Of a stretch of DNA of 64,000 bases, positions 5,545-41,410 are shown one piece after another; position 1 is the stretch's first letter; each line of letters starts with the position of its first letter. The stretch is from a bacterium (GTDB lineage Bacteria; B130-G9). A program made the translations under genes and the position numbers. The notes under the pieces are model-generated. The model made no database searches. It was not told the DNA's origin and was given only the letters and a program-made list of their open reading frames with translations. Location: the NCBI GenBank assembly GCA_035527515.1, contig DATLAJ010000057.1, positions 858 to 64,857 of the forward strand, written 5' to 3'.

Positions 5545-6747
5545 ATGAAACAAGAAAGCCCGTTCACACCGGGTAGCCCGGTGCCCTATGAGTTCTTCGT
5601 TGGTCGGCAAAAGGAGATTGAAGAGATCCTCACCTCTGTCAGGCGGGCTGCATCCGGGAGGCAGCAGAACGTTTTCTTGGTCGGCGAAAGAGGGATAGGT
5701 AAGAGCTCGCTTGCCCACTACGTGAGAGACCTGGCTGTCAAACAGTACAACTTCCTGACCGTTCACGTTCTCTTGGGCGGAGTAACTACTCTAGAAGAAC
5801 TTGTCCGGAGGGTGTTCGAGCGAATCGCTAATGAAGCTCATGCTCGACGCTGGTTCGAGAAGATTAGCGATGTATTCGGGGGCCGCATACAACAAGTGGG
5901 GTTTTTTGCCGTTTCCCTAGGTTTCAATGCACCCGAGAGTGATCTATCTCACCTGGTTAGAGATTTTCCGGAGGCTATCAACAAAATCAACGAGAAGATA
6001 AAAGATAAAATAAAGGGCATTCTTGTCGTTCTGGACGACATAAACGGGATTTGCAAGAAGGACGATTTCGCAAATTGGTACAAAAGCTGTGTGGACCACA
6101 TAGCGCTCCATTATAGGGGTTTCCCCGTGCTCATCATGCCGGTCGCGATACCGGAGATCAGACTCAGGCTAGGGGAACAACAGCCTTCGCTTATGAGAGT
6201 TTTCAAGGTGGTGGAGATAGAAGGACTCTCTGATGATGAGGTGAGAGCCTTTTTAACGAGAGCATTTGAGAGTGTCGGCGTCAAGGCATCCAGCGAAGTG
6301 ATTGGGGTGATGGTCTCCTATTCAGGTGGGCTACCGATTGTCATGCAGGAGATCGGCGACGCCGTATTCACGGCGAACAAGGATGATCTCATAGACGAAG
6401 ACGACTCAATAAAGGGACTGATGACCGCCGCCGAGACAATGGGGCAGAAGTATCTCGAGCCGAGGGTCTATCAAGCAATTCGTAGCAAGCGTTATCGCTC
6501 AATCTTGCGAAAACTGGGGAGCCTGCGTCCCTTGGCCCATTTCAAGAAAGCAGAGATTCAAAGTAAGCTGAATGTAGATGAGAAGAAGGTTCTCCATAAC
6601 TTTCTGAGAAGGATGAGAGAATTAGGCGTCGTTCTTCAGGATAAGGAAAGGGAACGAGGCTGGTATAAGTTCACGAACCCTCTTTATCCGCTTTACATCT
6701 CGATGGAAGGAATCCGCTACCGCGAGCGCCCCCGGAATAGGAGATAA
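5545..6747 (+). CDS. P-loop NTPase (AAA+ / archaeal-type ATPase-like) with a C-terminal winged-helix-like region.
   Basis: Walker A is LVGERGIGKSSLAHYV and Walker B-like is ILVVLDDINGI. The gene is visibly AT-richer than its neighbours, and a GGAG RBS lies upstream. Confidence 0.5.
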   Translation: MKQESPFTPGSPVPYEFFVGRQKEIEEILTSVRRAASGRQQNVFLVGERGIGKSSLAHYVRDLAVKQYNFLTVHVLLGGVTTLEELVRRVFERIANEAHARRWFEKISDVFGGRIQQVGFFAVSLGFNAPESDLSHLVRDFPEAINKINEKIKDKIKGILVVLDDINGICKKDDFANWYKSCVDHIALHYRGFPVLIMPVAIPEIRLRLGEQQPSLMRVFKVVEIEGLSDDEVRAFLTRAFESVGVKASSEVIGVMVSYSGGLPIVMQEIGDAVFTANKDDLIDEDDSIKGLMTAAETMGQKYLEPRVYQAIRSKRYRSILRKLGSLRPLAHFKKAEIQSKLNVDEKKVLHNFLRRMRELGVVLQDKERERGWYKFTNPLYPLYISMEGIRYRERPRNRR

Positions 6748-7667: not shown

Positions 7668-8777
7668 ATGATGCACGAGGGCGCCCGCGAGTTGGACGAA
7701 AGGGCGATCCAGAGCTTCTTTTTCCGCTACCCTCAGATAGTCGAGTCGTTCCTTGTGAAAAAGCACCTGCCAGTCTCGGGCCTTGAGGCCACAAGGTGCG
7801 AAGACGCGTGCGCCTCAGGTAGAGTTGACCTTGCCTTCAGACAGAGAGCGAGCAACTCGATGGTTCTATTGGAGCTGCAATTGGGCCGCGCCAACAGGGA
7901 CCACTACGACCGGCTCGCCTCGTACGTCAACGACTACTCGGAGCGCTTCTCGTTCTCGCGGGTGATCGGCGTTCACTTTGCCGAGGCGTTTCCCAAAACG
8001 CTCCCTCGTTACAGCCCTCCGCTTTACAGGGTTCGTTTTGCCCCGAGCAAAGTGGCGAGACTGGCCGAGGAGCTCCAGGCCCAGGAGGAGAGGCTCTTGG
8101 GACTGAGTTGCCCAAAGCCGCCCGTCTCTGCCTTTGCCAGACTCTCATACCTCAACGGGTTCTTCGCATTTATGAGGAAGCGCACGTTCGCCACGTTCCG
8201 CGAGGTGGTCGAAAACGTTGCGAACCTCGCCAAGAACCCTCGTCAGATACGCAATCCCGAATACCGCGCGCGGCTCTGGGTGAAGTTTGGGGAGAGTTTT
8301 GGGCTTCTGATTCGGCAAGAGGGCAGGATAGTGCTGACGGAGCTGGGGAGGGCATACGCCGCCTCGCTGGACGCCTCGTTCCCGTGGGCGCTCACGGCTC
8401 GGCAGAGGCGGATACTGATCGCCGGGCTCTCTGCCGCTCGCTGCACAAACGGCCACAAGTTTGGCATTTTCTGCATCCTGAAAGCTGCGGAGCAATCGGA
8501 GGAGAGGGCGCTCGAGACGGCTGATTCGCAGATGCAGAGCTTCGTGTCGTTCTGCCGCTCCAGTCGCCGATGGGTGAGAGTCTCGCAGCGTGCGTCGTTT
8601 GTTTGGTATGGCAATTACGCTAGGGAGTTGGGGCTTTGCCCGGACAGCGGACTTTCGGGCGCAAGGCTTCAGCTGACCGCGTTCGGGCGAGAGGTCCTTG
8701 CGCTATTCTCGAGGCAGTTTGCGGCGTTTGAGATGGAGCGGCGATTGCTTTTGAGAGGGACAGGCGGTATCCTTTGA
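7668..8777 (+). CDS. Hypothetical protein with a possible PD-(D/E)xK-like nuclease fold at its N-terminus.
   Basis: This is a 369-aa ORF in the coding frame directly upstream of the array. The N-terminal GRVDLAF...VLLELQLG pattern loosely resembles restriction-endonuclease-like motifs. I could assign no confident family. Confidence 0.3.
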   Translation: MMHEGARELDERAIQSFFFRYPQIVESFLVKKHLPVSGLEATRCEDACASGRVDLAFRQRASNSMVLLELQLGRANRDHYDRLASYVNDYSERFSFSRVIGVHFAEAFPKTLPRYSPPLYRVRFAPSKVARLAEELQAQEERLLGLSCPKPPVSAFARLSYLNGFFAFMRKRTFATFREVVENVANLAKNPRQIRNPEYRARLWVKFGESFGLLIRQEGRIVLTELGRAYAASLDASFPWALTARQRRILIAGLSAARCTNGHKFGIFCILKAAEQSEERALETADSQMQSFVSFCRSSRRWVRVSQRASFVWYGNYARELGLCPDSGLSGARLQLTAFGREVLALFSRQFAAFEMERRLLLRGTGGIL

Positions 8778-8794
8778 GTAGGATGAGGCACAAC

Positions 8795-10048
8795 ATGTGG
8801 CTCTTAATAACGACTAAGACGACGCATTACTGGTGGGCCAACTACAGCTGCGCTGACGGGAAGAATTTCATGTTGGCGCTGGGTTTGCAGCGAGTTCTGC
8901 GCGTGGACGGCACCATCGGCGAATGGGACCCCGGAACGAGTCCGGAGCATCCGGACGGGGACCGCGAGTGGAAGGAGCACAAGCTGCTTCACTGCAAGGC
9001 CACCTCGAACTTCAGGGAGTACGCGCAGGGGAACAGGGGGCATGAGCGATTTAGGATTTCAGTCTCACAAACCGCGCGGCAGATCGAGTTCAAGGTCAGA
9101 CTTGAGTCTGTTTGGCCGCAGCCGATTCCCTTCCCGGTGCCGGTGCCTTTCCCGCAGCCAGTCCCTTTGCCGGAGCCGCCGGTCATACCGGTCACGCCGG
9201 TCACCCCAGTTACGCCGGTCACACCGGTCACACCAGTCACGCCGGTCGTGGAGCCGGGTGCGGAGCGGGTACCCACGGGGGTTCTGAGGCCGACTCCGTT
9301 AAAAGGGAAGTTCAAGGTCTATCTTCGGTCAAGAGCCCTGAATAGATACAAGCCTAGGCTCCCACGAGACGGGAACAGGGACATATATATACACGGACAG
9401 CCGCTCTGGGAACGGGAGGCCGAGGCGGCCTTTGAGCAACCGCCTGAGGCAACGATCAAGCTCCGTGATGTGCCGATCGGGTGGGCAGTGCTCGAGGTGT
9501 GGGCAGAAGATGACCACGGGCATGATCTCAGCAAGAAGAAGACGATGCAGGTGTTTGTGTATCCTGAGATCTGGTGCAGGCGTGCGCTGGTTCCGGTATT
9601 TGGTCCCCATCTTGGGTATCGGACGAGGTGGGTGCTGCTGCCGCCGAGGGCGGAGCTGCCGCCGGTCACGCCGTTGCCGGAAGGTCCGCAGCCGCTGGTG
9701 GAGCCGATTGTCGAGCCGATACTCCCCGACGAGAAGGGCGTCTATCACATCCGCGCCGCCCTCTGGAAGCAGTCCGACGGCTACTTCGTTGTCGGTAATC
9801 CTGAAGACCGCTACGACCCCAGCAAGATCAAGGACTACAAAGTCCAATCCGACTTCAAAGTCGATGAGCAGAGGTTGACCCCGGAAGACCAACCACTTAT
9901 ATCTTGCGGGCCCTGGCAGACGGGTACAGAGGACTCGCGTTGCGCTCTTCCGGAACACGAAAGCGAACGAATAGACGTCATTGTTCTGGAGCCTGCCGAG
10001 GTAAAAGCGCTCACTGACGAGGTGCTGCCCATTCAGAAGCTGAAATAA
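8795..10048 (+). CDS. Array gene A1, full length. It has a conserved N-terminal domain, a Pro-rich (PFPVPVPF / (PVT)6) linker, and a conserved C-terminal module with a Cys-bounded variable loop.
   Basis: ATG at 8795 is where homology with copy A2 begins (caacatgtggctcttaataacg). The stop is 4 nt before the RBS of B1. The C-terminal 170 aa are shared with the downstream cassettes A3', A4' and A5'. Confidence 0.65.
   Translation: MWLLITTKTTHYWWANYSCADGKNFMLALGLQRVLRVDGTIGEWDPGTSPEHPDGDREWKEHKLLHCKATSNFREYAQGNRGHERFRISVSQTARQIEFKVRLESVWPQPIPFPVPVPFPQPVPLPEPPVIPVTPVTPVTPVTPVTPVTPVVEPGAERVPTGVLRPTPLKGKFKVYLRSRALNRYKPRLPRDGNRDIYIHGQPLWEREAEAAFEQPPEATIKLRDVPIGWAVLEVWAEDDHGHDLSKKKTMQVFVYPEIWCRRALVPVFGPHLGYRTRWVLLPPRAELPPVTPLPEGPQPLVEPIVEPILPDEKGVYHIRAALWKQSDGYFVVGNPEDRYDPSKIKDYKVQSDFKVDEQRLTPEDQPLISCGPWQTGTEDSRCALPEHESERIDVIVLEPAEVKALTDEVLPIQKLK
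9178..9249 (+). repeat. In-frame 9-bp tandem repeat (ccggtcacg)n, about 7 units, encoding (PVT)n in A1.
   Basis: The repeat is read directly from the sequence and is absent from A2. Confidence 0.8.
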
Positions 10049-10058
10049 GGAGGTGGAA

Positions 10059-11441
10059 ATGACTTGGCTGCGACTGGCGATGGTCGTTCTGTTGTCCGCG
10101 GTATTTGCGTTGACGTCTTGCGCCGTAGGGCAAGCGGCTGATTATCCCTGGGTCTATTACTTCGAGAGGCCGGACTTCCCGCAGATACACTGTGCCTTCG
10201 CGGATACGGACGGGAGCGTGGTTGTCTCTACGGGAGACTGGCTTGACACTGGGTATGATTGGGTGACCGGGGATATCGTGTACTACTACCGCTCAGCGGG
10301 ACTGTATCGGATCATTTGCGGGACTGTTGAACCTATTGAGTGCCCTGCGAATACCTTTGTTCTCGACGCGGCCGTCGATTCAGAAGGCACGACTTGGCTG
10401 CTTATTGCGCATGGGCGTAATGGATATGTCGAGACCGGCAGTTTGGCCGGTCCGACTTGCGCAGACACGCTCGGGTCCGCTGTCGGTTATCGGAATTTCG
10501 GACTTTACCTCGAGAACTACAGGTTTGCGCGCCTCGAAGGGGCTACAGTGATTGAGGATAAGCAGATAACGGAGGCAGTGCCGACGACCCCTATCACAAT
10601 GTGTTGCGACCCGTGGGGGAGGGTGTATGTTTTCAGTTGGCGGTGGTCGGACAATAGGGATATTGAGGAGAGAAGGAGCTTTGTTTCTTGGTGGTCGGGC
10701 GGCAATCCGGATGACTTACACGTCTCCGAAATCTCGAACATCCTCCATGGCGCAAACATGGATTACTATGGGGCTCGTTATCCCGCCTTCGGGCCGGACG
10801 GTCTGGCCTACTTCGTTGTGGGGAACGCGTGGGACTTCGCAGCCTCCACAGAATACGCGGTCCTATGCCTTGACCCTAAAACTCAGTCTTGGGAGGTCTA
10901 CGACGAACAGGTCTGCAGCTTGCTAGGCTGCGCAATACGCTACTTCTGCGTGGATTCAATGAACGTCAAGTGGTTCGGGACAGAAGACGGGCTGGTTCGG
11001 TTTGATGGCCAGAGCTGGTCTCGGTACACAACGGGGAACACTGGGCTTCCTCACAATCTAGTGCGGCAAATTCAATACGATCAGGCCGAGGGAGTGTATT
11101 ATGTTGTCACGCAGGCCGACCCACAGTATCGGACAGCCTTCAGCGTTCTCTCCCCCGGAGGCCGACTTGTTGGGGGTCCTTTGTCGTCCCCGCGGGAAGG
11201 GCTCCCTTGGTACCTACCCCAGATTTACAGGGATGTGAGGGGAACGTGGTGGCTGCTGTTGCCTCCCAACTACAGGGCGACAACAACACCATACGATGTG
11301 TATGCGTACGACGGCCGGGGCGTGTTTCGTTGGGACAGCAGGGTCTCGTTCGATAGGCCAGACGTCCACATCGGATTCATCGGGAGCGACGCAGAGGGAC
11401 GCGACTTCTGTGTGGGGCCTACATGCGTGATGATCTGGTAG
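10059..11441 (+). CDS. Array gene B1. It is a beta-propeller lipoprotein (Reg_prop-like repeats) ending in CVMIW.
   Basis: An aaggagg RBS lies 6 nt upstream of ATG. The lipobox reads ALTSC. Motifs DYPWVYYF, NVKWFGTEDGLVRFDGQSW..TGNTGLPHN.VRQIQYD resemble two-component-regulator propeller repeats. The C-terminus is FCVGPTCVMIW. Confidence 0.65.
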   Translation: MTWLRLAMVVLLSAVFALTSCAVGQAADYPWVYYFERPDFPQIHCAFADTDGSVVVSTGDWLDTGYDWVTGDIVYYYRSAGLYRIICGTVEPIECPANTFVLDAAVDSEGTTWLLIAHGRNGYVETGSLAGPTCADTLGSAVGYRNFGLYLENYRFARLEGATVIEDKQITEAVPTTPITMCCDPWGRVYVFSWRWSDNRDIEERRSFVSWWSGGNPDDLHVSEISNILHGANMDYYGARYPAFGPDGLAYFVVGNAWDFAASTEYAVLCLDPKTQSWEVYDEQVCSLLGCAIRYFCVDSMNVKWFGTEDGLVRFDGQSWSRYTTGNTGLPHNLVRQIQYDQAEGVYYVVTQADPQYRTAFSVLSPGGRLVGGPLSSPREGLPWYLPQIYRDVRGTWWLLLPPNYRATTTPYDVYAYDGRGVFRWDSRVSFDRPDVHIGFIGSDAEGRDFCVGPTCVMIW

Positions 11442-11731
11442 GAGGATTGCTGGCCTTGGCTGAGAAGATTGACGTGAGTCGCGTGGTGACCGCGATCGTG
11501 TCGCGGATTCCGGAGTATCTTAGGACGTGCGAGGTTTGCCTTCGCACGCAGGACGACGTCACGGCTCAGGAGTCCACGCTGCTCTATGGGTCGAAGTTCT
11601 GGGCCGTGATGAATGACACCGACCGCGCTGGCAACATAACTGGGAAGCAGCGGCTGTTCCTGGAGATCGGCACGCCTCTTCAGTATTTCCTTGCGCACGA
11701 TAACGAGAGCGGCCAGCTTCAGAAGTTCAAC

Positions 11732-13129
11732 ATGTGGCTCTTAATAACGACTAAGACGACGCATTACTGGTGGGCCAACTACAGCTGCGCTGACGGGAAG
11801 AATTTCATGTTGGCGATGGGTTTTCAGCGAGTTCTGCGCGTGGACGGCACCATCGGCGAATGGGACCCCGGAACGAGTCCGGAGCATCCGGACGGGGACC
11901 GCGAGTGGAAGGAGCACAAGCTGCTTCACTGCAAGGCCACCTCGGACTTCAGGGAGTATGCACGGGGGAACAGGGGGCATGAGCGATTCAGGATTTCAGT
12001 CTCACAAACGGCGAGGGAGATCGAGTTCAAGGTCAGACTTGAGTCTATTTGGCCGCAGCCGATCCCCTTCCCGGTGCCAGTGCCTTTCCCGCAGCCGGTC
12101 CCTTTCCCGCAGCCGGTCCCTTTCCCGCAGCCGGTCCCTTTCCCGCAGCCGGTCCCTTTCCCACAGCCGGTCCCTTTGCCGCAGCCGGTCCCTTTCCCAC
12201 AGCCGGTCCCTTTCCCACAGCCGGTCCCTTTGCCGCAGCCGACCCCTTTGCTGGAGCCGACCCCTTTGCTGGAGCCGCCGGTCACGCCGGTCGTGGAGCC
12301 GGGTGGGGAGCGGGTACCCACGGGGGTCCTGAGGCCGACTCCGTTAAAGGGGAAGTTCAAGGTCTATCTTCGGTCAAGAGCCCTGAATAGATACAAGCCT
12401 GGACTCTCCCCGGACGGGAATAGGGACATATATAGACATGGACAGCCGCTCTGGGAGCGGGAGGCGGAGGCCCCCTTTGAGCAACCGCCTGAGGCAACGA
12501 TCAAGCTCCGTGATGTGCCGGTTGGTTGGGCAGTGCTCGAGGTGTGGGCGGAGGATGACCACGGGCATGATCTCAGCAAGAAGAAGACGATGCAGGTGTT
12601 TGTGTATCCTGAGATCTGGTGCAGGCGTGCGCTGGTTCCGGTACTTGGTCCCCATCTTGGGTATCGGACGAGGTGGTTTTTGCTGCCGCCGAGGGCGGAG
12701 CTGCCGCCCGTGACGCCGCTGCCGGAAGGTCCGCAGCCGCTTTTGGAGCCGATTGTGCAGCCGATACTCCCCGACGAGAAGGGCGGCTATCACATCCGCG
12801 CCGCCCTCTGGAAGCAGTCCGACGGCTACTTCGTTGTCGGTCCTGGGGGCTCCCGCTACGACCCCGCAACAATCACCGACTACAACGTCCAATCCGAATT
12901 CAGCGTCGATGCGCAAGAAGTGAGAGACTCGGAGGGCAATTTCTTGGGCTATTGCGGGCCGAACAATGAGGACCCAGTGACCGGCCAGCCGTCAGATAGG
13001 TGTGCAAACACTCTCCCGCAACACGAGAGCGAGCGAGTAGATGTGATCCAGCTCAAGCCCCTGGAAGTGAAAAGCCCCTTTCCAACGATCGTGTCCGATG
13101 AAAAGCTGATACAAGGAGGGAAGAAATGA
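11732..13129 (+). CDS. Array gene A2, full length. Its Pro-rich linker is expanded to ~12 PQPVPF repeats.
   Basis: ATG at 11732 is where homology with A1 begins. The reading frame is open upstream to 11423, but that stretch has no similarity to A1. An 18-bp in-frame tandem repeat runs 12085-12280. The stop TGA overlaps the ATG of B2. Confidence 0.6.
   Translation: MWLLITTKTTHYWWANYSCADGKNFMLAMGFQRVLRVDGTIGEWDPGTSPEHPDGDREWKEHKLLHCKATSDFREYARGNRGHERFRISVSQTAREIEFKVRLESIWPQPIPFPVPVPFPQPVPFPQPVPFPQPVPFPQPVPFPQPVPLPQPVPFPQPVPFPQPVPLPQPTPLLEPTPLLEPPVTPVVEPGGERVPTGVLRPTPLKGKFKVYLRSRALNRYKPGLSPDGNRDIYRHGQPLWEREAEAPFEQPPEATIKLRDVPVGWAVLEVWAEDDHGHDLSKKKTMQVFVYPEIWCRRALVPVLGPHLGYRTRWFLLPPRAELPPVTPLPEGPQPLLEPIVQPILPDEKGGYHIRAALWKQSDGYFVVGPGGSRYDPATITDYNVQSEFSVDAQEVRDSEGNFLGYCGPNNEDPVTGQPSDRCANTLPQHESERVDVIQLKPLEVKSPFPTIVSDEKLIQGGKK
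12085..12280 (+). repeat. In-frame 18-bp tandem repeat (ccgcagccggtccctttc)n, about 9 copies plus 2 variant units, encoding (PQPVPF)n.
   Basis: The repeat is read directly from the sequence. A1 has only ~2 units at the equivalent place. Confidence 0.85.
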
Positions 13130-14457
13130 AAAAACGGTCGCTGGTCATGCTGATTGCGCTGTGCGCGGTGATCGGTTCGCCGCCTTTTGGGCTGTCCCAG
13201 CAAGTAGATTACCCCTGGGTGCATTATTTCGACCGTCAGATAGGTTGCGTCTATGCCGACGCGGAATGGAACGTGCTCGTGTCCACCGGGGACTGGAACT
13301 ACACCACCGGCGACGGTACTGGGGCCATCACGTATTGGTATTTGTCCGACGGAGTGTTCAAGATTTGGGAGGGCGAGATTGACAAGATCGAGTTCCCCGC
13401 CGGCACCTTGGTCTTGGGTTTTGCGACCGATTCGGGGGGAACTACATGGGCGCTCTTCGGAGAAGGTCAGAACCACACGCAACACGCGGAGGATCTGCCC
13501 TGGAAGTGTCAGGCGACGGTCTTGGACTCCGTTTCCCGATCTCCGCTCATTGCCAATCCCAGGTTAGCACGCATCCAGGGAACAGGCATTGTCGTGGATA
13601 GTGAGCTGACCGCTTCGATCCCGGGGAAGCCGGTTGCCATCGTTTCGGACGTTTGGGGCACAGTCTTTGTGATCAGTTACCAGGTCAGTTACCGGGACGT
13701 TGACTCGGGTGGTGCGAGGTACTTCGTTTCTTGGTGGCCTGGGGCTGAGCCGGGCTCGCTCCGTATTCAAGAGGTCCCCCATGTTTTTGACTACGTCATC
13801 ACTTCGCGTCGACCGTCTTTTGGACCAGACGGCCTAATGTACCTGCTCGCGAGCAACACGGAGGGGATCTACTACGCTCGGTCTCCCTCTGGGGTGCTGG
13901 CGTTGGACCCCCAGGATGAGGAATGGTGTGTCTATTATGGAGGCGATAGGGCGATCTATTGCGTTTATGTGGATCAGTTTAACGTGAAGTGGTTCGGGAC
14001 TCAGGACGGCCTCTTCCGGTTGGATGCCGGAAACTGGGCCTCCTGGACGACCGCGAACAGCGGACTGCCCTATAACGGCGTGCGACAGATAACCTATGAC
14101 GAGATCGACAACGTGTATTACGTGGTCTCACAGTATTGCGACAGCGCAGTTGGAGACTGCTACGGAGCTTTCGCGGTGCTTTCCGGTGATGGGCAACGTG
14201 TCGGGCCACCGCTGAACCTCCCCGACTGCACCGATCTGTGGATACCGAAGGCGCACCGATCCGGAGCCACTTGGTACTTGATGCCTTATGTCATCTACGA
14301 CGTGATCTACTCTTATGATCACAGAAACGTACGAGCTTGGCACCTCCGGGATTGGGTCAGCGTTGGCGCCGACACGTTCGACTTATCCATCGGCCCGGTC
14401 GGGGACCGGCGCACCTTTCTTGCCCTGCACCTGTGCAGCTGCGTTATGATCTGGTAA
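13126..14457 (+). CDS. Array gene B2. It is a beta-propeller secreted protein (Reg_prop-like) ending in CVMIW.
   Basis: It starts with the signal peptide MKKRSLVMLIALCAVIG. The DYPWVHYF, NVKWFGTQDGLFRLD and LPYNGVRQITYDEIDNVYYVVS motifs are conserved with B1, B3 and B4. The C-terminus is LHLCSCVMIW. Confidence 0.65.
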   Translation: MKKRSLVMLIALCAVIGSPPFGLSQQVDYPWVHYFDRQIGCVYADAEWNVLVSTGDWNYTTGDGTGAITYWYLSDGVFKIWEGEIDKIEFPAGTLVLGFATDSGGTTWALFGEGQNHTQHAEDLPWKCQATVLDSVSRSPLIANPRLARIQGTGIVVDSELTASIPGKPVAIVSDVWGTVFVISYQVSYRDVDSGGARYFVSWWPGAEPGSLRIQEVPHVFDYVITSRRPSFGPDGLMYLLASNTEGIYYARSPSGVLALDPQDEEWCVYYGGDRAIYCVYVDQFNVKWFGTQDGLFRLDAGNWASWTTANSGLPYNGVRQITYDEIDNVYYVVSQYCDSAVGDCYGAFAVLSGDGQRVGPPLNLPDCTDLWIPKAHRSGATWYLMPYVIYDVIYSYDHRNVRAWHLRDWVSVGADTFDLSIGPVGDRRTFLALHLCSCVMIW

Positions 14458-14460
14458 CCG

Positions 14461-15015
14461 ATGAGCATCACGCAGGTGTTTGTGTATCCGGAGATACGAT
14501 GTGCAAAAAAGCTGGTATTCGAGCGTGATCCGCTTGGACTGGGATTTATCAGGATGAGGTGGAAGTTGCTGCCGCCGACAGAGCTGGTGCCGCCGGTGAC
14601 GCCGCTGCCGGAGGGTCCGCAGCCGGAGGTGGGACCGATTGTGCAGCCGATACTCCCCGACGAGAAGGGCGGCTATCACATCCGCGCCGCGCTCTGGAAG
14701 CAGTCCGACGGCTACTTCGTTGTCGGTCCTGGCGGCTCCCGCTACGACCCGGAAACCATCACCGGCTACAACGTCCAATCCGACTTCAGCGTCGATGAGC
14801 AAAAACTCGGCCGAATTGAGGATTCGGACAAGATCTGGCGGATGCTGTACTGCGGGCCAAACAACATGGATCAGAGATTTCACCCTCCGGAGCTTTCCAC
14901 CGACTGCGTCAACGCCATTCCTATATATGAAAGCGAGCGGATAGACGTTATTACATTGAAGCTTGAAGTAAAACCGCTCATTGACGAGGGCCTGCCCGTT
15001 AAGAAGCCGAAATAA
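14461..15015 (+). CDS. Array cassette A3'. It is a 5'-truncated copy of gene A containing the C-terminal module only (184 aa).
   Basis: ATG lies 4 nt after the B2 stop. It begins MSITQVFVYPEI, homologous to the internal KTMQVFVYPEIW of A1 and A2. It has its own variant of the CGP...C loop, and the gene-A N-domain and Pro linker are absent. Confidence 0.55.
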   Translation: MSITQVFVYPEIRCAKKLVFERDPLGLGFIRMRWKLLPPTELVPPVTPLPEGPQPEVGPIVQPILPDEKGGYHIRAALWKQSDGYFVVGPGGSRYDPETITGYNVQSDFSVDEQKLGRIEDSDKIWRMLYCGPNNMDQRFHPPELSTDCVNAIPIYESERIDVITLKLEVKPLIDEGLPVKKPK

Positions 15016-15041
15016 GGAGGTCGAAGACGACTAGGCTGGAA

Positions 15042-16421
15042 ATGGCCATTCTGGTTCTGCTGTCCGCGGTATTTGCGTTGACATCTTGCACTGTAGCGCA
15101 AGCAGGTGATTACCCCTGGGTGCATTACTTCGATACTCCCAGCTGCGCGGATCATCCTTCGATCCACTTCGCGTTCCCGGATGGCGAGGGCAATGTCATC
15201 GTGTCAACGGGTGACTGGGTCCCCGATTACTGGCCTAATGAGAAATACTATGACTACCGCCCGGGAGCTTTATACCGAGTGAATGAGGGGGTCAAGCAGA
15301 CAATCGACGCACCCGAGAACACGTATGTGCTTGACGCTGCCGTGGACGGTCAAGGCAGGACCTGGATTATATCTGCCGAGGCGAGCAGTTACCACGTGTA
15401 TTACCGGAACGGCCTGTGCGTTGAGGATAAGGGGTACCCTCTTCCCCAGAGTTTCGGCTATGGGCGATACCGATTCCCGGAGTCTCCCCTTGCCGAGGCC
15501 TACGGCGGTCTTGACAAGCCAGCCTTGGGAACGCTCCGGGCTGGGCGCTTTGTCCGACTTCCTGAAGTGACCGAGGCGATTCCCGGGACACCACGTGGGA
15601 TTTGCGTTGACGCTCAGGGTCACGTCTTCTTGATGACCTCGGAATGGGATCCTTGGGAGTTCACCGCATACTTCGTCTCGTGGTGGGGAGCCGAAGGGCC
15701 TGAATCACTTCGAACTCTCGACCTGTGGCAGATCATTCCGAACTCCTGGCTTCGAGATTATCCGCAGTTTGCTCCGGATGGCGTCGCATATCTTCTCATC
15801 GTGTATAATGCGGGCGGTCCGGGGGCTGGTTACGACTACGCCCTTCTCCGCCTCGATCCTAAGACCGGCGAGTATTGTGTTTACCGGAATACCGATTATG
15901 CGTATCTTGACTCCGAAGTTCGATGCTTCTACATAGACCCAATGGGCATCATCTGGCTCGGCACCGAAGATGGCCTTGTTCGTTTCGATGGGCAGACGTT
16001 GAGTCGTTGGACGACTGAAAACAGCGGCCTTCCCTATAATGCCGTCAGGCAAATCGTGTACGATGAGATCGATGACGTCTATTATGTGATCTCAGAAAAG
16101 GATATCGGTTGGGACACCTCTATGCTATTCAGCATGCTGTCACCGGTGGGCGACGCGATAGGTGCCCCTTTTATCCTACCTACGGTCGCAAACCGACTCT
16201 TTCAATTCTCCAAGGTGTTTCGTGACGGCAGAGGCGTGTTCTGGCTCTGTCCCTATGAGGCGAGCAGGGCTTACTCCTATGACCATGAACGAGTCATGCA
16301 GTGGTACGCAGCCGACTGGATGGAGCTCGTGAGCAACGTCCACTACGTCGGCTCGACTGCTTCAGGCCGGACATTCTGCGTAGCGGGAGGATACGGCGCC
16401 TCGTGCGTGATGATCTGGTAG
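15042..16421 (+). CDS. Array gene B3. It is a beta-propeller lipoprotein ending in CVMIW.
   Basis: It shares the signal-peptide motif AILVLLSAVFALTSC with B4. The ATG of B4 reads ACG here, so the start shifts to 15042. Reg_prop-like motifs are present and the C-terminus is GASCVMIW. Confidence 0.6.
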   Translation: MAILVLLSAVFALTSCTVAQAGDYPWVHYFDTPSCADHPSIHFAFPDGEGNVIVSTGDWVPDYWPNEKYYDYRPGALYRVNEGVKQTIDAPENTYVLDAAVDGQGRTWIISAEASSYHVYYRNGLCVEDKGYPLPQSFGYGRYRFPESPLAEAYGGLDKPALGTLRAGRFVRLPEVTEAIPGTPRGICVDAQGHVFLMTSEWDPWEFTAYFVSWWGAEGPESLRTLDLWQIIPNSWLRDYPQFAPDGVAYLLIVYNAGGPGAGYDYALLRLDPKTGEYCVYRNTDYAYLDSEVRCFYIDPMGIIWLGTEDGLVRFDGQTLSRWTTENSGLPYNAVRQIVYDEIDDVYYVISEKDIGWDTSMLFSMLSPVGDAIGAPFILPTVANRLFQFSKVFRDGRGVFWLCPYEASRAYSYDHERVMQWYAADWMELVSNVHYVGSTASGRTFCVAGGYGASCVMIW

Positions 16422-16435
16422 CGGAGAAGAAGAGG

Positions 16436-16963
16436 ATGCAGGTGCTTGTGTACCCGCAGATTAGGTGCAGGCGTGCGCTAGTTCCGGTATTTGGTCCTCA
16501 TCTTGGGTGGCGCACGAGGTGGGTTCTGCTGCCGCCGAGAGAGAAGGTGCCGCCCGTGACGCCGCTGCCGGAGGGTCCGCATCCGGTGGTGGGGCCGATT
16601 GTGCACCCGACACCCCCGGACGAGGAGGGCGTCACCACAATCGAGGCCGCGCTCTGGAAGCAGTCCGACGGCTACTTCAAGGGCGATAGATACGACCCCG
16701 CCGGCATCACTGGCTACTGGTACCAGAGGTTTCACTTCAGCGTCGATGAGGAATGGCTGAATGCGGATGCACACAGAGACCGTGGTGATCCCTTGATCGC
16801 GTGCGGGCCAAATGACGGCGAACCGGGGGGGGAAGGCCTGTGCGGCCTTCCGGAGCATGAGAGCGAGCGGATAGACGTTATTACCCTCAAGCGCGCCCCG
16901 ATAATAGCCCTCACTGACGAGGCGCAGCCCGTTAAGAAGCTGAAAAAAGGCGGTCGAAGATGA
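16436..16963 (+). CDS. Array cassette A4'. It is a 5'-truncated gene A C-terminal module (175 aa).
   Basis: ATG at 16436 lies 15 nt after the B3 stop. It begins MQVLVYPQIRCRRALVPVFGPHLGWRTRW and carries a variant CGPNDGEPGGEGLC loop. Its stop overlaps the ATG of B4. Confidence 0.55.
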   Translation: MQVLVYPQIRCRRALVPVFGPHLGWRTRWVLLPPREKVPPVTPLPEGPHPVVGPIVHPTPPDEEGVTTIEAALWKQSDGYFKGDRYDPAGITGYWYQRFHFSVDEEWLNADAHRDRGDPLIACGPNDGEPGGEGLCGLPEHESERIDVITLKRAPIIALTDEAQPVKKLKKGGRR

Positions 16964-18327
16964 CTAGGCTGGAAATGGCCATTCTGGTTCTGCTGTCCGC
17001 GGTATTTGCGTTGACATCTTGCACTGTAGCGCAAGCAGGTGATTACCCCTGGGTGCATTACTTCAAGCCGCCTGATATGCGGCAAGTCCACTGCGCGTTT
17101 GCTGACGCCGAGGGGAACGTGATCGCTGCTACTGGTGACTGGAATTACAGCACATACAACTGGGGCACCGGGGATACCACCTATTGGTATCTGTCCGATG
17201 GGATATTCCAGATTCGCGAGGGAGACATAGAGGCCGTGCAGTGCCCGGCGTCCACATTCGTCCTGGACTGCGCGACAGATTCTGCCGGAAGGACGTGGGT
17301 GTTGTTCGCCGAAGGTCATGATTATAGGCAACACGTGTGGGATCCCTGGCGGTCTGCTGCGCTGAGAGGTCCTTGTGCGGCATCCGACGTGGGCTATAGG
17401 CACTTTCGCTGGCCGACCGGTATGTGGTCGTATCTAACCGACTATAGGCTGGCTACAATCGAGGAAGGCGGCTTGCGAGAGCAGCGTGAGCTATTGGACA
17501 GAGTGCCGGCCGAACCGGTCGTAATGGCAGCCGACCCTCAGGGCCGGATATACGTCATGAGTTGCGAGGACTGTGACGACCGCATTGCTGATTTCTTCAT
17601 TTCTTGGTGGTCTGGACATGACTCCAGTTGCATACGTACAATATGTTTGTGGGATCTTATTCCAGATTCCTGGGCCGCTGACTATCCTAAGTTCGGTCCA
17701 GACGATCTTGTGTACTTCCTCATAAGGATCGCGGCCGGAGATGCGAACTCTAGGTTCGCCGTGCTCTGCCTTGATCCAGAGACTGAGGAGTATGAGATTT
17801 GGAGGGCCTCCGATTACGCATTTCTCGATTCGGAGGTCTATTGCTTCTACGTGGACCAGTTCAACGTTAAGTGGTTTGGGACCGACGATGGCTTGGTTCG
17901 GTTTGACGGCGAGACCTGGATGCGCTTCGCGTCGGAAAACAGCCCACTGCCTTACGATCGGATTAAACAGATCCAATATGATGAGATCGACTATGTCTAT
18001 TACATCGTCTCGGCAGCAGAGGATTGGAGAGAACATCCAGACGACTACGTGGCGCTCAGTGTATTCTCCCCAACGGGGCGGGCGATATATGAGCCATCGT
18101 ATATGCCCGGGGGACCGTTGCTGCGGCGCGGATCAGGCAACATATGGTATCTCATGCCGGGCTGGGATGATGATCTAGTTTACGTCTATGATCACGTGAG
18201 ACTCAGCGAATTCAGCTTGCGAGATTGGGTGGACGTCCCGGAATACTCCGCTTGGGATTTCGCCATATCTCCTACGACCTTAGGGCAGACATTTTTTGCT
18301 AATGACTACTGCGTAATGATCTGGTAG
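16960..18327 (+). CDS. Array gene B4. It is a beta-propeller lipoprotein ending in CVMIW.
   Basis: It starts MTRLEMAILVLLSAVFALTSC. About 110 nt of its 5' end are near-identical to B3. Reg_prop-like motifs are present and the C-terminus is ANDYCVMIW. Confidence 0.6.
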   Translation: MTRLEMAILVLLSAVFALTSCTVAQAGDYPWVHYFKPPDMRQVHCAFADAEGNVIAATGDWNYSTYNWGTGDTTYWYLSDGIFQIREGDIEAVQCPASTFVLDCATDSAGRTWVLFAEGHDYRQHVWDPWRSAALRGPCAASDVGYRHFRWPTGMWSYLTDYRLATIEEGGLREQRELLDRVPAEPVVMAADPQGRIYVMSCEDCDDRIADFFISWWSGHDSSCIRTICLWDLIPDSWAADYPKFGPDDLVYFLIRIAAGDANSRFAVLCLDPETEEYEIWRASDYAFLDSEVYCFYVDQFNVKWFGTDDGLVRFDGETWMRFASENSPLPYDRIKQIQYDEIDYVYYIVSAAEDWREHPDDYVALSVFSPTGRAIYEPSYMPGGPLLRRGSGNIWYLMPGWDDDLVYVYDHVRLSEFSLRDWVDVPEYSAWDFAISPTTLGQTFFANDYCVMIW

Positions 18328-18335
18328 CGAAGACG

Positions 18336-18650
18336 ATGCAGGTGTTTGTGTATCCTGAGATCTGGTGCAGGCGTGCGCTGGTTCCGGTATTTGGTCCCCA
18401 TCTTGGGTATCGGACGAGGTGGGTGCTGCTGCCGCCGAGAGAGAAGGTGCCGCCCGTGACGCCGCTGCCGGAGGGTCCGCATCCGGTGGTGGGGCCGATT
18501 GTGCACCCGACACCCCCGGACGAGGAGGGCGTCACCACAATCGAGGCCGCGCTTTGGAAGCAGTCCGACGGCTACTTCAAGGGCGATAGATACGACCCCG
18601 CCCTGGTTGCCCGGCATCCTACGGATCAGCACATTGTTCGGCTCAATTGA
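18336..18650 (+). pseudogene. Array cassette A5'. It is a terminal, doubly truncated remnant of the gene A C-terminal module.
   Basis: The first ~105 nt are 100% identical to A1 at 9541-9650. Homology to A4' ends abruptly at 18603 after GDRYDPA, and the frame then runs into unrelated sequence and stops at 18650. The Cys loop and the ESERIDVI end are missing. Confidence 0.5.
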
Positions 18651-39202: not shown

Positions 39203-41410
39203 CTAGGGGAAGGCAAAGTATCTGCCAGGGTGCTCGGTGGGGAACATGAGAGGGACTTTGCCCAGCGGCGTGTCACTTCTCAGCGCTGGCCCAAGCTGCG
39301 TTGACCAAGGCGGAAGCGTGAGCCGCGAACTCGAGATTAAGCCCTGCGATTGCACAAGCTGCGCCTCGCGGATTGGAACGCTGCGACCCCTGTCGAGAAC
39401 TGTAACGCGAACCTCGTCGATGTGGCCAGCGAGCAGCCACTTCTCGTTTTGCTCGAGGCGCACGGTGGCCTCGGTCGCCTCGAAGCTAGCTGGAAGCGTG
39501 AGCAGGGTGTGGGAGTTGTTTGAAATGAGCTCGAGTTGCGCGGTGACGTTTTCCAGTGGTCTATCAGCGACGATATCGAGCCGGTCGATCAGGCCCACAT
39601 CGGTATCAAGGGGCAACCGAACCTGGTCGCCCGGAGATGTGCTGTCAGCGAATCTTGCATGCACCACGTCGTGACGCAGGTTCAAGTAGGACCGCTGACG
39701 AGCGAGCACGCGGGCCGAGAGGTCTGGGAGCTCCAGAGCCTTTTGACCATCGAACGCAAAAGCCCGAACAGACATCCCAGCCGGGATGGATTTGTATTGA
39801 AAGCTGCTCACCCAGTCACTGAAGGGCAGAGAATCGACGCGTTTGCCATATTCCGCACGTATTGGCGCCCGTATGTTCCAGCAAGATGAGCTCCTGTCGA
39901 TTAGGGACTTGTCGCGGAAGACGATGAGAACGAGAGTGTTGTCCGGGACCTCAGGCTGCGCCGCCACAATCGCCTTGGGAAGACGAGCACACTCGCTCGC
40001 CTCATCGACAAACATCGCGAAGAGCTTCAGGAAGCCGGCCATGTAGGCGCCCACTAATAGTAGGACAATCCCAACGATCAAGAACTTGAGCGGAGCGCGA
40101 GACATTCTCGGTGAAAGCCGTCGGCGCAAAGCGCATCTTGTCGCAACGGCGGCGGCCGCGACAAGGGCGATGGCATACCTTGTGGTCGCGGTGCTCGCGC
40201 TCGAGGCCCCCTGGGCGAAAAAATCGGTCCAACCTGCCCGAATCAGCGCGAACACCCAATAGATTACTGAGGCGGCTATCACCCAATCGAGAGCTGCGGA
40301 GAGCATGGAGCGTCTTTGGCGGTCGAGAATCGTCTCCGGCAGCAGCACAAGAAGATAAGCCATCAGGCCCGCGACGCCAAACGAGCAGAGCAAGACGCGA
40401 TGGTGGCCAACCCCCGCAAGGGGGAACGCCAAAGCTGGCGTGATAGCTATCCATAACACCAGGAAGAGCGTCAACCTCCAATTGGCCCTGAAACCCACGT
40501 AAAGGATGATCACGGCTACTACGCAGAGCAGGGGTGAGAACTTCAGCGGGAATACGTTTGTGTAGAGGATTGTGGGCAGCCTCCTAATGGCCTGGAGGAA
40601 CGTGAGTTCCCTTACGCACGCGAAGTAGTAGTTGTTGATGACGACGTTCGTGCTGAGCAACAGCGCTCTGAGGCCGAGAAGGGCGGCAGCCATGACCCAC
40701 AGCGGCAGATTGACCTTCAAAAGGCGTCGGAAGAGACTTCTTCTGCCCTTTTCCTCTCTCCATATCAGTTCGTAGATCAATAGCAGAAGCGGCATGAAGA
40801 TCGCGGACTCGTAGAAGAGAAAGCTGGCTGCGTATGTAATGCAGGCTAGGACAATCCTGGTGCGAGATGGGCTCTTGCGGTAGCCGGGTCCCACAAGCCA
40901 GAACGTAAGAAGCGCAAACAGCGCTGAGTTGAGGCCCTGTATCTGTGACATCCAGAACACAGGCTCGACGTGGCATGTCATCACGGCAAATATCAGCGAG
41001 CCGAGCGCCCCTACGAGAAAAGATCGGGACAGCGCCTCGAGGCTCAGAAATACCAGAAGGCATATCATGGCATAGACGGCAGAGTTGATCGCCCTGGGCA
41101 AGACTGTGTTTGTCCCGAACAGCTTATACTCGGTCGCCTGCATCATTGCGGCTAGCGGCCGGTAGTACTGCGATCCGTAATGCCTCTGGAGAACGACTGG
41201 ATAGTGCGCTATCTGCCCCCAAGTCTGCGGTCTGAAGGACACCCAGCTCTCTGTCAAGTAGTATGCTTTCAGACCCGAGGCGGTCATCGCGATCGGAAGC
41301 AGCACGATCGCGACAATGAACCATCGCCTGGCTTTGGCGCCCGGCGATTGAAGTCTGTCAGGCCAGAACTGCACGCGCTCTCCGATCTCAACAGAGTTTT
41401 CTTGCCGCAC
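39203..41410 (-). CDS. Large polytopic membrane protein. It may be a GT39/ArnT-like or DUF2079-like glycosyltransferase with a C-terminal periplasmic domain.
   Basis: The N-terminal ~430 aa contain about 12 TM segments and the C-terminal ~300 aa are soluble. It has a GTG start, and the upstream region contains paired 38-nt repeats. Confidence 0.35.
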   Translation of the reverse strand: MRQENSVEIGERVQFWPDRLQSPGAKARRWFIVAIVLLPIAMTASGLKAYYLTESWVSFRPQTWGQIAHYPVVLQRHYGSQYYRPLAAMMQATEYKLFGTNTVLPRAINSAVYAMICLLVFLSLEALSRSFLVGALGSLIFAVMTCHVEPVFWMSQIQGLNSALFALLTFWLVGPGYRKSPSRTRIVLACITYAASFLFYESAIFMPLLLLIYELIWREEKGRRSLFRRLLKVNLPLWVMAAALLGLRALLLSTNVVINNYYFACVRELTFLQAIRRLPTILYTNVFPLKFSPLLCVVAVIILYVGFRANWRLTLFLVLWIAITPALAFPLAGVGHHRVLLCSFGVAGLMAYLLVLLPETILDRQRRSMLSAALDWVIAASVIYWVFALIRAGWTDFFAQGASSASTATTRYAIALVAAAAVATRCALRRRLSPRMSRAPLKFLIVGIVLLLVGAYMAGFLKLFAMFVDEASECARLPKAIVAAQPEVPDNTLVLIVFRDKSLIDRSSSCWNIRAPIRAEYGKRVDSLPFSDWVSSFQYKSIPAGMSVRAFAFDGQKALELPDLSARVLARQRSYLNLRHDVVHARFADSTSPGDQVRLPLDTDVGLIDRLDIVADRPLENVTAQLELISNNSHTLLTLPASFEATEATVRLEQNEKWLLAGHIDEVRVTVLDRGRSVPIREAQLVQSQGLISSSRLTLPPWSTQLGPALRSDTPLGKVPLMFPTEHPGRYFAFP

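Follow-up and report, generated by a model that had tools for sequence, protein, structure and literature searches.

We analysed a 64,000-nt stretch of contig DATLAJ010000057.1 (hereafter, the window), which derives from a metagenome assembly and carries, at 8.8–18.7 kb, an array of nine co-oriented and densely packed open reading frames (ORFs) in which an A module and a B gene alternate. Coordinates are positions in the window, and all array features lie on the + strand. Adjoining array genes are spaced between a 4-nt overlap and 26 nt, and the array has a period of ~1.9 kb. An initial annotation of this DNA had reported identical tracts between otherwise diverged copies, and had read them as the outcome of recurrent segmental gene conversion instead of a single ancient duplication. 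Here, we examine these tracts, the relatives of the array in other assemblies, and the explanations that might account for both.

The first module, A1 (8774..10048), is a 424-aa ORF with a likely ATG start at 8795 (MWLLITTK), and comprises, from N to C terminus, an N-terminal domain, a Pro-rich linker, a beta-sandwich, a conserved segment that we call the handle, and a variable tail. The handle was defined as MQVFVYPEI...LWKQSDGYF (~270 nt, the module start in the short copies), and the tail as the ~90 aa that follow it. B1 (10053..11441, 462 aa) starts with a signal peptide that includes a lipobox-like LTSC, continues as a beta-propeller with a Reg_prop-type repeat, and ends in CVMIW. A2 (11423..13129, a 568-aa ORF) starts with a second type of handle, EKIDV...CEVCLR (11462-11572), then has a segment homologous to residues 890–1063 of a giant protein encoded at related loci, and is otherwise organized as A1; it also contains an 18-nt tandem repeat that encodes (PFPQPV)n (12017..12304). 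The start of B2 (13126..14457, 443 aa) overlaps the A2 stop by 4 nt, and A3' (14461..15015, 184 aa), a 5'-truncated module with a handle and a tail in an intact ORF, begins 3 nt past the B2 stop. B3 (15042..16421, 459 aa) is followed by another 5'-truncated module, A4' (16436..16963), of 175 aa from the ATG at 16436; the mechanically called ORF extends from 16301 and overlaps B3. The stop codon of A4' overlaps the ATG of B4 (16960..18327, 455 aa). The array ends with A5' (18336..18650, 104 aa), a terminal remnant that consists of the handle only and shows no homology to the other A tails past 18602. The handle is thus present in all five A modules, and identity falls sharply beyond it.

All four tracts of the initial annotation exist, with three of the four coordinate pairs out of register by 1 to 15 nt. 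It had paired 9541-9650 of A1 with 18331-18440 of A5', a register (offset 8790) in which only 26/110 positions agree; at the correct offset of 8791, 9538-9648 in the A1 handle and 18329-18439 in A5' are base-for-base identical over 111 nt, and the same A1 segment matches A2 at 109/111 positions. The two copies do diverge just downstream of the tract, where identity drops to ~83%, and A5' then matches A4' almost perfectly, as had been claimed (169/171 for 16520-16690 versus 18420-18600). The match is 176/177 for 16526-16702 versus 18426-18602, with exact blocks at 16526-16653 (128 nt) and 16655-16702 (48 nt). The near-identical tract between A2 and A3' lies at an offset of 1886 instead of 1880: 97/98 positions agree between 12749-12846 and 14635-14732, with exact blocks at 12749-12804 and 12806-12846. 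Lastly, the shared 5' ends of B3 and B4 hold up at an offset of 1933, not 1918. Here, 15029-15131 equals 16962-17064 (103 nt) and spans the ribosome-binding region, the signal peptide, and the motif DYPWVHYF. The base that precedes the tract is C in B3 (15028) and T in B4 (16961), such that the upstream ATG of B4 is ACG in B3, the single C/T difference originally noted; the bodies of the two genes are diverged, with only ~42% identity in protein. We also noted that A3' ends in TAA followed by GGAGG (15013-15045), and that A4' has AAA and GGCGG at the same positions (16946-16978). A4' thereby reads five codons further (KGGRR) before its TGA overlaps the B4 ATG. B3, lacking the upstream ATG, would begin with MAILV, which leaves its signal peptide without a charged n-region.

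Sliding-window comparisons over all five units showed that identity alternates strongly and is not uniform. Identity between A1 and A5' is 100% and then 83%, and that between A4' and A5' is 87% and then 100%. A2 and A3' share 60%, then 95–98%, then 50%. B3 and B4 are 100% identical across the signal peptide and 30–65% thereafter, and B2 and B4 reach 65–72% in the first third of the gene, where other pairs are at 35–55%. We evaluated these alternations with two permutation tests (5,000 permutations each, hence a floor of P=0.0002). In a 3SEQ-type test, which scores the maximum excursion along informative sites, A5' was recovered as a child of A1 and A4', with 13 consecutive A1-type sites and A4'-type sites on both flanks (P=0.0002); several further triplets were also significant (P≤0.0002). 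Having A4'-type sites on either side, the A1-type segment of A5' is a patch and not the product of a single crossover. In a GENECONV-type test of the kind that the initial annotation had proposed, where the longest run of concordant polymorphic sites is compared with column permutations under a null of homogeneous divergence, five pairs were significant: A1/A5' (run of 45), B3/B4 (49), A2/A3' (17), and A1/A2 (30), each at P=0.0002, and A4'/A5' (36) at P=0.003.

Synonymous differences, obtained by Nei–Gojobori counts, also separate the tracts from the B bodies. The proportion of synonymous differences (pS) between B bodies is 0.71–0.79, that is, at saturation. By contrast, there are 0/22.7 synonymous differences in the first 29 codons of B3/B4, 0/25 in the first 35 handle codons of A1/A5', and 1/37 in the next 51 codons of A4'/A5'. 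Within the first of the A tracts, pS is 0.28 for A1/A4' and 0.56 for A1/A3'. Since synonymous differences are zero or nearly so in the tracts and saturated in the B bodies, the identity of the tracts is not due to constraint at the protein level.

The array was found in three further assemblies (L001–L003), not necessarily from independent samples of one site. L002 (Joint Genome Institute (JGI) 3300031539) matches the window at every base over 7,009 nt. L001 and L003 are MEGAHIT k141 assemblies from the European Nucleotide Archive. L001 covers window positions 5024-26421 without a mismatch, its one difference being an 18-nt gap in the PFPQPV repeat of A2; L003 differs at 3 bases, of which two fall within ~50 nt of its contig end. 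The longest exact repeats between copies are 128, 120, 111, and 103 nt, all below k=141, and the assembly graph is therefore unambiguous at these positions. The initial annotation had named a collapsed or chimeric assembly as what might undo its claim; the array is reproduced in all three assemblies, and collapse is very unlikely to explain the tracts. The PFPQPV repeat is a separate matter: a one-unit difference at 12145 separates the window from L001, and a related locus (L005) has a run of N within the same repeat (9705-10047 of L005), hence its copy number is either variable or beyond the reach of short reads. In A1, the corresponding region (9080-9223) has fewer PFPQPV units plus a (TPV)n run.

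Next, we compared handles, tails, and B proteins among 12 A/B pairs from six loci. Handles cluster by genome: the A1 and A2 handles have an identity of 0.94 and two handles of L006/L007 one of 0.91, while the matching tails are at 0.45 and 0.42 and the matching B proteins at 0.40 and 0.42. Tails and B proteins, on the other hand, cluster by type across genomes and do so together. A1/B1 of the window pairs with L006 (tail 0.63, B 0.69), the A2 tail with L005 (0.72), and L011a with L004a (tail 0.65, B 0.67). In Mantel tests, the correlation with B was r=0.54 for the tail (P=0.0002) and r=0.33 for the handle (P=0.013). At the DNA level, the handles of related arrays (240–300 nt) are 89–95% identical, and B genes at most 79%. 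Given that handles group by genome and tail plus B by type, it follows that the handle evolves in concert and that the cassettes stay diverse. The sequence pattern as a whole is that of a handle under concerted evolution combined with a reshuffled pool of old segment types.

The B genes are indeed old. Homologues of B are scarce, with ~15 among 5.8 billion proteins and a full-length relative in only 4 of 185,579 species genomes, namely metagenome-assembled genomes (MAGs) of uncultured bacteria and one Candidatus Coatesbacteria MAG. The four B paralogues of the window are mutually ~40% identical; B1, by contrast, shares 69–73% aa identity with proteins of other contigs (L006, P0012), and B2 is 68% identical to its closest relative, P0013. 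B4 is itself a mosaic: its last third is 68% identical to the B proteins L004a and L011a, and its first two thirds only 34–37%. Because several B proteins are closer to relatives in other genomes than to members of their own array, the paralogues must be older than the split of the lineages, and the identical tracts far younger. A patchwork of the same segment types was seen in an A gene from an unrelated study (L013). It starts as A1/A2-type (93–96%), continues through A4'/A5'-type, A3'-type (95%), and A1-type (85–93%) segments, and is followed by a B start that is 83–98% B4-like; L013 therefore joins segment types that sit in separate paralogues in the window.

The origin of the A modules became apparent from three related loci (L006–L008), where the A sequence forms the C-terminal ~400 aa of a giant protein of 1,338 aa, intact in L006. 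In L010, it lies in a 1,097-aa ORF followed by a 218-aa ORF in another reading frame. The window holds no full-length giant gene and no counterpart to the N-terminal 890 aa of the giant protein, hence A1, A2, and A3'–A5' are nested 5' truncations of it. The second handle (EKIDV...CEVCLR), which opens A2, also opens the modules of L004 and L011. A3', A4', and A5' share a single start point at MQVFVYPE, the last strand of a beta-sandwich modelled with moderate confidence by AlphaFold2 (AF2), and each has an ATG and an intact ORF that runs to the next B gene (A5' being terminal). They also share one truncation junction, in which a B stop is followed by ...ATGCAGGTG. When 9519-9545 was compared with 16410-16440 and 18316-18340, the 3' end of B read ...ATGATCTGGTAG and the A-internal sequence just 5' of the truncation point ...CATGATCTCAGCAAGAAGAAGACGATGCAG, with a microhomology, ATGATCT, at the junction that is common to both; it may mark the illegitimate join that made the first short module.

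The tails align with one another (31–72% aa identity) and have the motifs RYDP, FSVD, CGP, and ESERIDVI in common. The AF2 model of A1 is poor (predicted local distance difference test score, pLDDT, of 40) and unreliable in the tail (pLDDT ~30). Neither A nor the giant protein (1,338 aa in L006, 1,097 aa in L010) matched any entry in Pfam, PHROGs, NCBIfam, PADLOC, or PDB sequences, and the same searches yielded nothing usable for the genes upstream of the giant protein. A homologue search with the giant protein returned only itself, and a profile search of 1.84 billion representatives with A returned 21 proteins, all unannotated and mostly short, module-like ORFs. We also compared L006 and L010, two contigs of one JGI sample. 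Their upstream flanks (positions 1–1112 in both) are 91% identical and contain two small paralogous genes; past this flank, their giant genes are only 39% identical in protein and are followed by different arrays. The L010 giant gene changes frame at ~4640, directly after the EKIDV handle, which could be due to a frameshift, to a true split of the gene, or to misassembly.

The B product is a secreted, probably lipid-anchored, beta-propeller protein of ~450 aa: it has a signal peptide, with a lipobox-like LTSC, as read directly from the sequence, in B1, B3, and B4. B3 scores 33.2 bits for Reg_prop (PF07494), above the Pfam gathering cut-off of 20.4 bits, B4 (20.3) and B1 (16.9) fall just below it, and B2 has no match. 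With a repeat above the cut-off and a propeller fold, B3 qualifies as a Reg_prop protein. Its AF2 model is an all-beta propeller (pLDDT 78, predicted template-modelling score 0.79), and the best fold matches in the PDB, the Bacteroides sensor propellers BT4663 and BT4673, have low template-modelling scores and are generic propeller matches only. All full-length B homologues end in (C/S)VMIW or VIMIW (11427-11441, 14443-14457, 16407-16421, and 18313-18327 in the window) and carry an N-terminal (D/A)YPW(V/I)(H/Y)YF motif. Both motifs are beta-strands in the AF2 model (residues 27–30 and 454–458), and may make up the blade that closes the propeller; the C terminus could, alternatively, be a signal for sorting or modification.

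The array sits among chromosomal genes. Upstream lie genes for a STAND-like ATPase, SpoVG, QueD, and a 369-aa protein, downstream lies a gene for a 1,846-aa beta-helix/PQQ-propeller protein, and the rest of the window is housekeeping in character (DnaE, PBP2, RodA, GatB, glycogen phosphorylase, alanine racemase, and glycosyltransferases). Its position between SpoVG-QueD-369aa and the 1,846-aa gene is kept in three species. Among window ORFs of at least 250 aa, we found no gene of a phage or secretion system and none for a recombinase or reverse transcriptase. Given that there were also no PHROG matches, and given the housekeeping neighbours and the conserved position, we rejected a phage origin of the array. 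The STAND/AAA_16 ATPase upstream of SpoVG and QueD (5545-6747) has weak SngB/BrxD-like matches, and the syntenic loci L004 and L005 have EF-G in its place. The conserved 369-aa gene directly 5' of A1 (7668-8777), whose stop overlaps the start of the A1 ORF, has only weak NucS_C/PDC-S11-like matches. A 735-aa ORF on the - strand (39203-41410) has no Pfam match at E≤1e-4. In a promoter and terminator scan, sites were no more numerous than in shuffled sequence.

Collectively, five independent lines of evidence support recurrent segmental exchange over one ancient duplication: the shifts in topology along the units and their statistical significance, the contrast in synonymous divergence, the closer relatives of B in other genomes, the clustering of handles by genome and of tail plus B by type, and the patchwork in L013. 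We therefore favour, with a probability of roughly 80%, a tandem array of two-gene cassettes whose old units carry young, short patches (~100–180 nt) laid down by gene-conversion-type recombination. Under this reading, patches were copied between units by non-allelic homologous recombination, presumably of the RecA type. The patches lie where the units stay similar, namely in the A handle and in the ribosome-binding and signal-peptide region of B. Conversion would homogenize these segments within a genome, and its tracts would end at the tail and the B body, owing either to heterology or to selection against homogenized variable parts. Handles might then serve as portable homology arms through which tail-plus-B cassettes are shuffled, duplicated, lost, and exchanged. 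For the clearest patch, the likely donor would be A1 or A2 and the recipient A5'. By analogy with the C-terminal-toxin/immunity modules of contact-dependent growth inhibition (CDI) and Rhs systems, an A tail and the B encoded downstream of it may be functional partners.

Several points weigh against this reading. Sequence alone cannot separate non-reciprocal conversion from a double crossover or from import from another strain, nor does it fix the direction and number of events. The identity of A4' and A5' could stem partly from a recent (partial) duplication, and the correlation between tail and B could stem from physical linkage alone. The three further assemblies differ by one 18-nt unit and 3 bases, and exchange is not demonstrably ongoing or frequent. 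As for the partnership of tail and B, the tails do not have unrelated toxin folds but are versions of a single small domain, homologous to one another, and domain searches detected no secretion, toxin, or immunity domain.

We considered whether the mosaic might have arisen without exchange. If the units had been duplicated in tandem recently and had then diverged locally at great speed, through diversifying selection or targeted hypermutation, for example by a diversity-generating retroelement, the tracts would be unmutated leftovers. The tandem layout, the ~1.9-kb period, and the truncation junction common to A3', A4', and A5' do point to propagation by duplication. Nevertheless, we regard this account as very unlikely: B types are closer to other genomes than to their own array, the B bodies are saturated at synonymous sites, and no single duplication history makes A5' equal to A1 in one tract and to A4' in the next. 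Neither a reverse transcriptase nor a recombinase turned up among the ORFs scanned, and a diversity-generating retroelement as such was rejected for want of a reverse transcriptase within that same size limit. Another possibility is that repeats from several strains were collapsed or joined into a chimeric contig, the tracts being switches in the assembly graph. The metagenomic source, the one-unit difference in the A2 repeat, and the N run in L005 are compatible with this notion; it is, however, scarcely credible in light of the agreement of L002 over 7,009 nt and of L001 and L003 save for one repeat unit and 3 bases, of exact repeats shorter than k, and of a handle/cassette pattern that recurs in related species. 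Purifying selection at the nucleotide level, acting for instance on a regulatory RNA, on codon usage, or on a signal for ribosome binding or coupling, could in principle hold the tracts identical, and these do begin at translation start regions: the A5' tract starts 2 nt past the B4 stop, and the B3/B4 tract spans the ribosome-binding region and signal peptide. However, the copies that are identical differ from tract to tract, and where A1 equals A5', A3' is only ~60% and A4' ~86% identical, which excludes a common constraint. No conserved structure or motif common to all copies and related loci was seen at the tract positions, and we give this explanation almost no weight.

Other explanations accept recombination and differ in its source or purpose. 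The mosaic might come mainly from homologous recombination with DNA imported from other strains, by allelic or cassette replacement. Segment types are indeed common across populations (L013, L005, and L004), and in one sample two very different arrays lie behind a 91%-identical upstream flank (L006 versus L010). Tracts of 100% identity between paralogues of one chromosome are, however, most simply explained by intragenomic copying, and handles cluster by genome; import as the main source is thus rather unlikely, although the two processes are not mutually exclusive. Segmental gene conversion is also familiar from antigenic-variation loci such as Neisseria pilE/pilS, Borrelia vlsE, and Treponema tprK. 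Like these, the array has short conversion tracts between tandem, partly truncated paralogues that produce mosaics, and the truncated A' modules might accordingly be silent donors for an expressed A gene: 5'-truncated cassettes lie downstream of longer copies, and the products look surface-exposed or secreted. Unlike in those loci, a single expression site with silent donors is not evidenced, and the three consensus assemblies display no variation within a population. The A' modules have start codons, their ORFs are unbroken, and they are interleaved with intact B genes; the clearest tract seems to have a long copy as its source and the terminal remnant as its target; A1 and A2 are constant except for repeat number in the consensus assemblies (where minority variants are not visible); and the window lacks a full-length giant gene. 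Programmed antigenic variation therefore seems quite improbable. The array likewise differs from the targets of diversity-generating retroelements, there being no nearby reverse transcriptase among ORFs of at least 250 aa.

Variable lipoprotein families such as Mycoplasma vsp/vlp combine a near-identical 5' non-coding region and signal peptide with diverged mature parts. B3 and B4 resemble these in having 103 identical nt at their 5' ends and bodies that are ~42% identical in protein. Unlike vsp/vlp products, B is a globular propeller without size variants of internal tandem repeats, and no site-specific recombinase or inversion sites were found in the window (ORFs of at least 250 aa were scanned).

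Among known systems, the array layout comes closest to orphan cdiA-CT/cdiI and rhs-CT/rhsI arrays (Poole et al., 2011, PMC3150448; Koskiniemi et al., 2014, PMC3967940), whose truncated C-terminal fragments remain homologous to the main gene in the stretch that directly precedes the variable part, and which exchange modules from strain to strain. Here too, 5'-truncated C-terminal pieces of a very large protein lie in tandem, each with a partner gene behind it, the orphan copies keep a conserved stretch directly 5' of the variable C terminus, and modules are common to and rearranged between strains, with swapping by recombination at the conserved stretch as the proposed route. B always lies directly 3' of A and co-varies with the tail. 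The differences are nevertheless substantial. In contrast to CDI, Rhs, and MafB proteins, domain searches found no two-partner secretion (TPS)/haemagglutinin, Rhs/YD, PAAR, LXG, or DUF1020 delivery domain in the giant protein; the VENN and PxxxxDPxGL motifs are absent; and the tails are variants of a single domain with no match to a toxin family. B is an exported beta-propeller of ~450 aa instead of a small immunity protein, and the truncated A' modules have start codons of their own, with no full-length gene at this locus. In its working, the locus resembles a polymorphic cassette array, but membership in CDI, Rhs, or Maf is not supported.

Gene conversion in short patches between tandem paralogues is an ordinary, textbook mechanism, and our understanding of such mosaics is unchanged by this example. 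The gene family, by contrast, is new, unannotated, and very rare, with ~15–20 members among billions of public proteins. In practical terms, our results caution that short A' ORFs should be annotated as module fragments, and not as independent genes of unknown function. The value of the locus lies in its anatomy: a conserved recombination handle precedes a co-varying cassette of tail and partner gene, and the modules are nested truncations of a giant protein. By analogy with CDI and Rhs arrays, we tentatively suggest, as a possibility on the unlikely side, that the array might be a store of orphan modules for an unrecognized polymorphic cassette system in Coatesbacteria-like bacteria, built from unrelated proteins, in which the small C-terminal tail of an exported giant protein would be swapped by recombination at the handle, each tail with its matched exported propeller, and which may serve strain discrimination or antagonism and protection. 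The hypothesis of such a new system, in a candidate phylum that has no cultured members, is concrete and testable.

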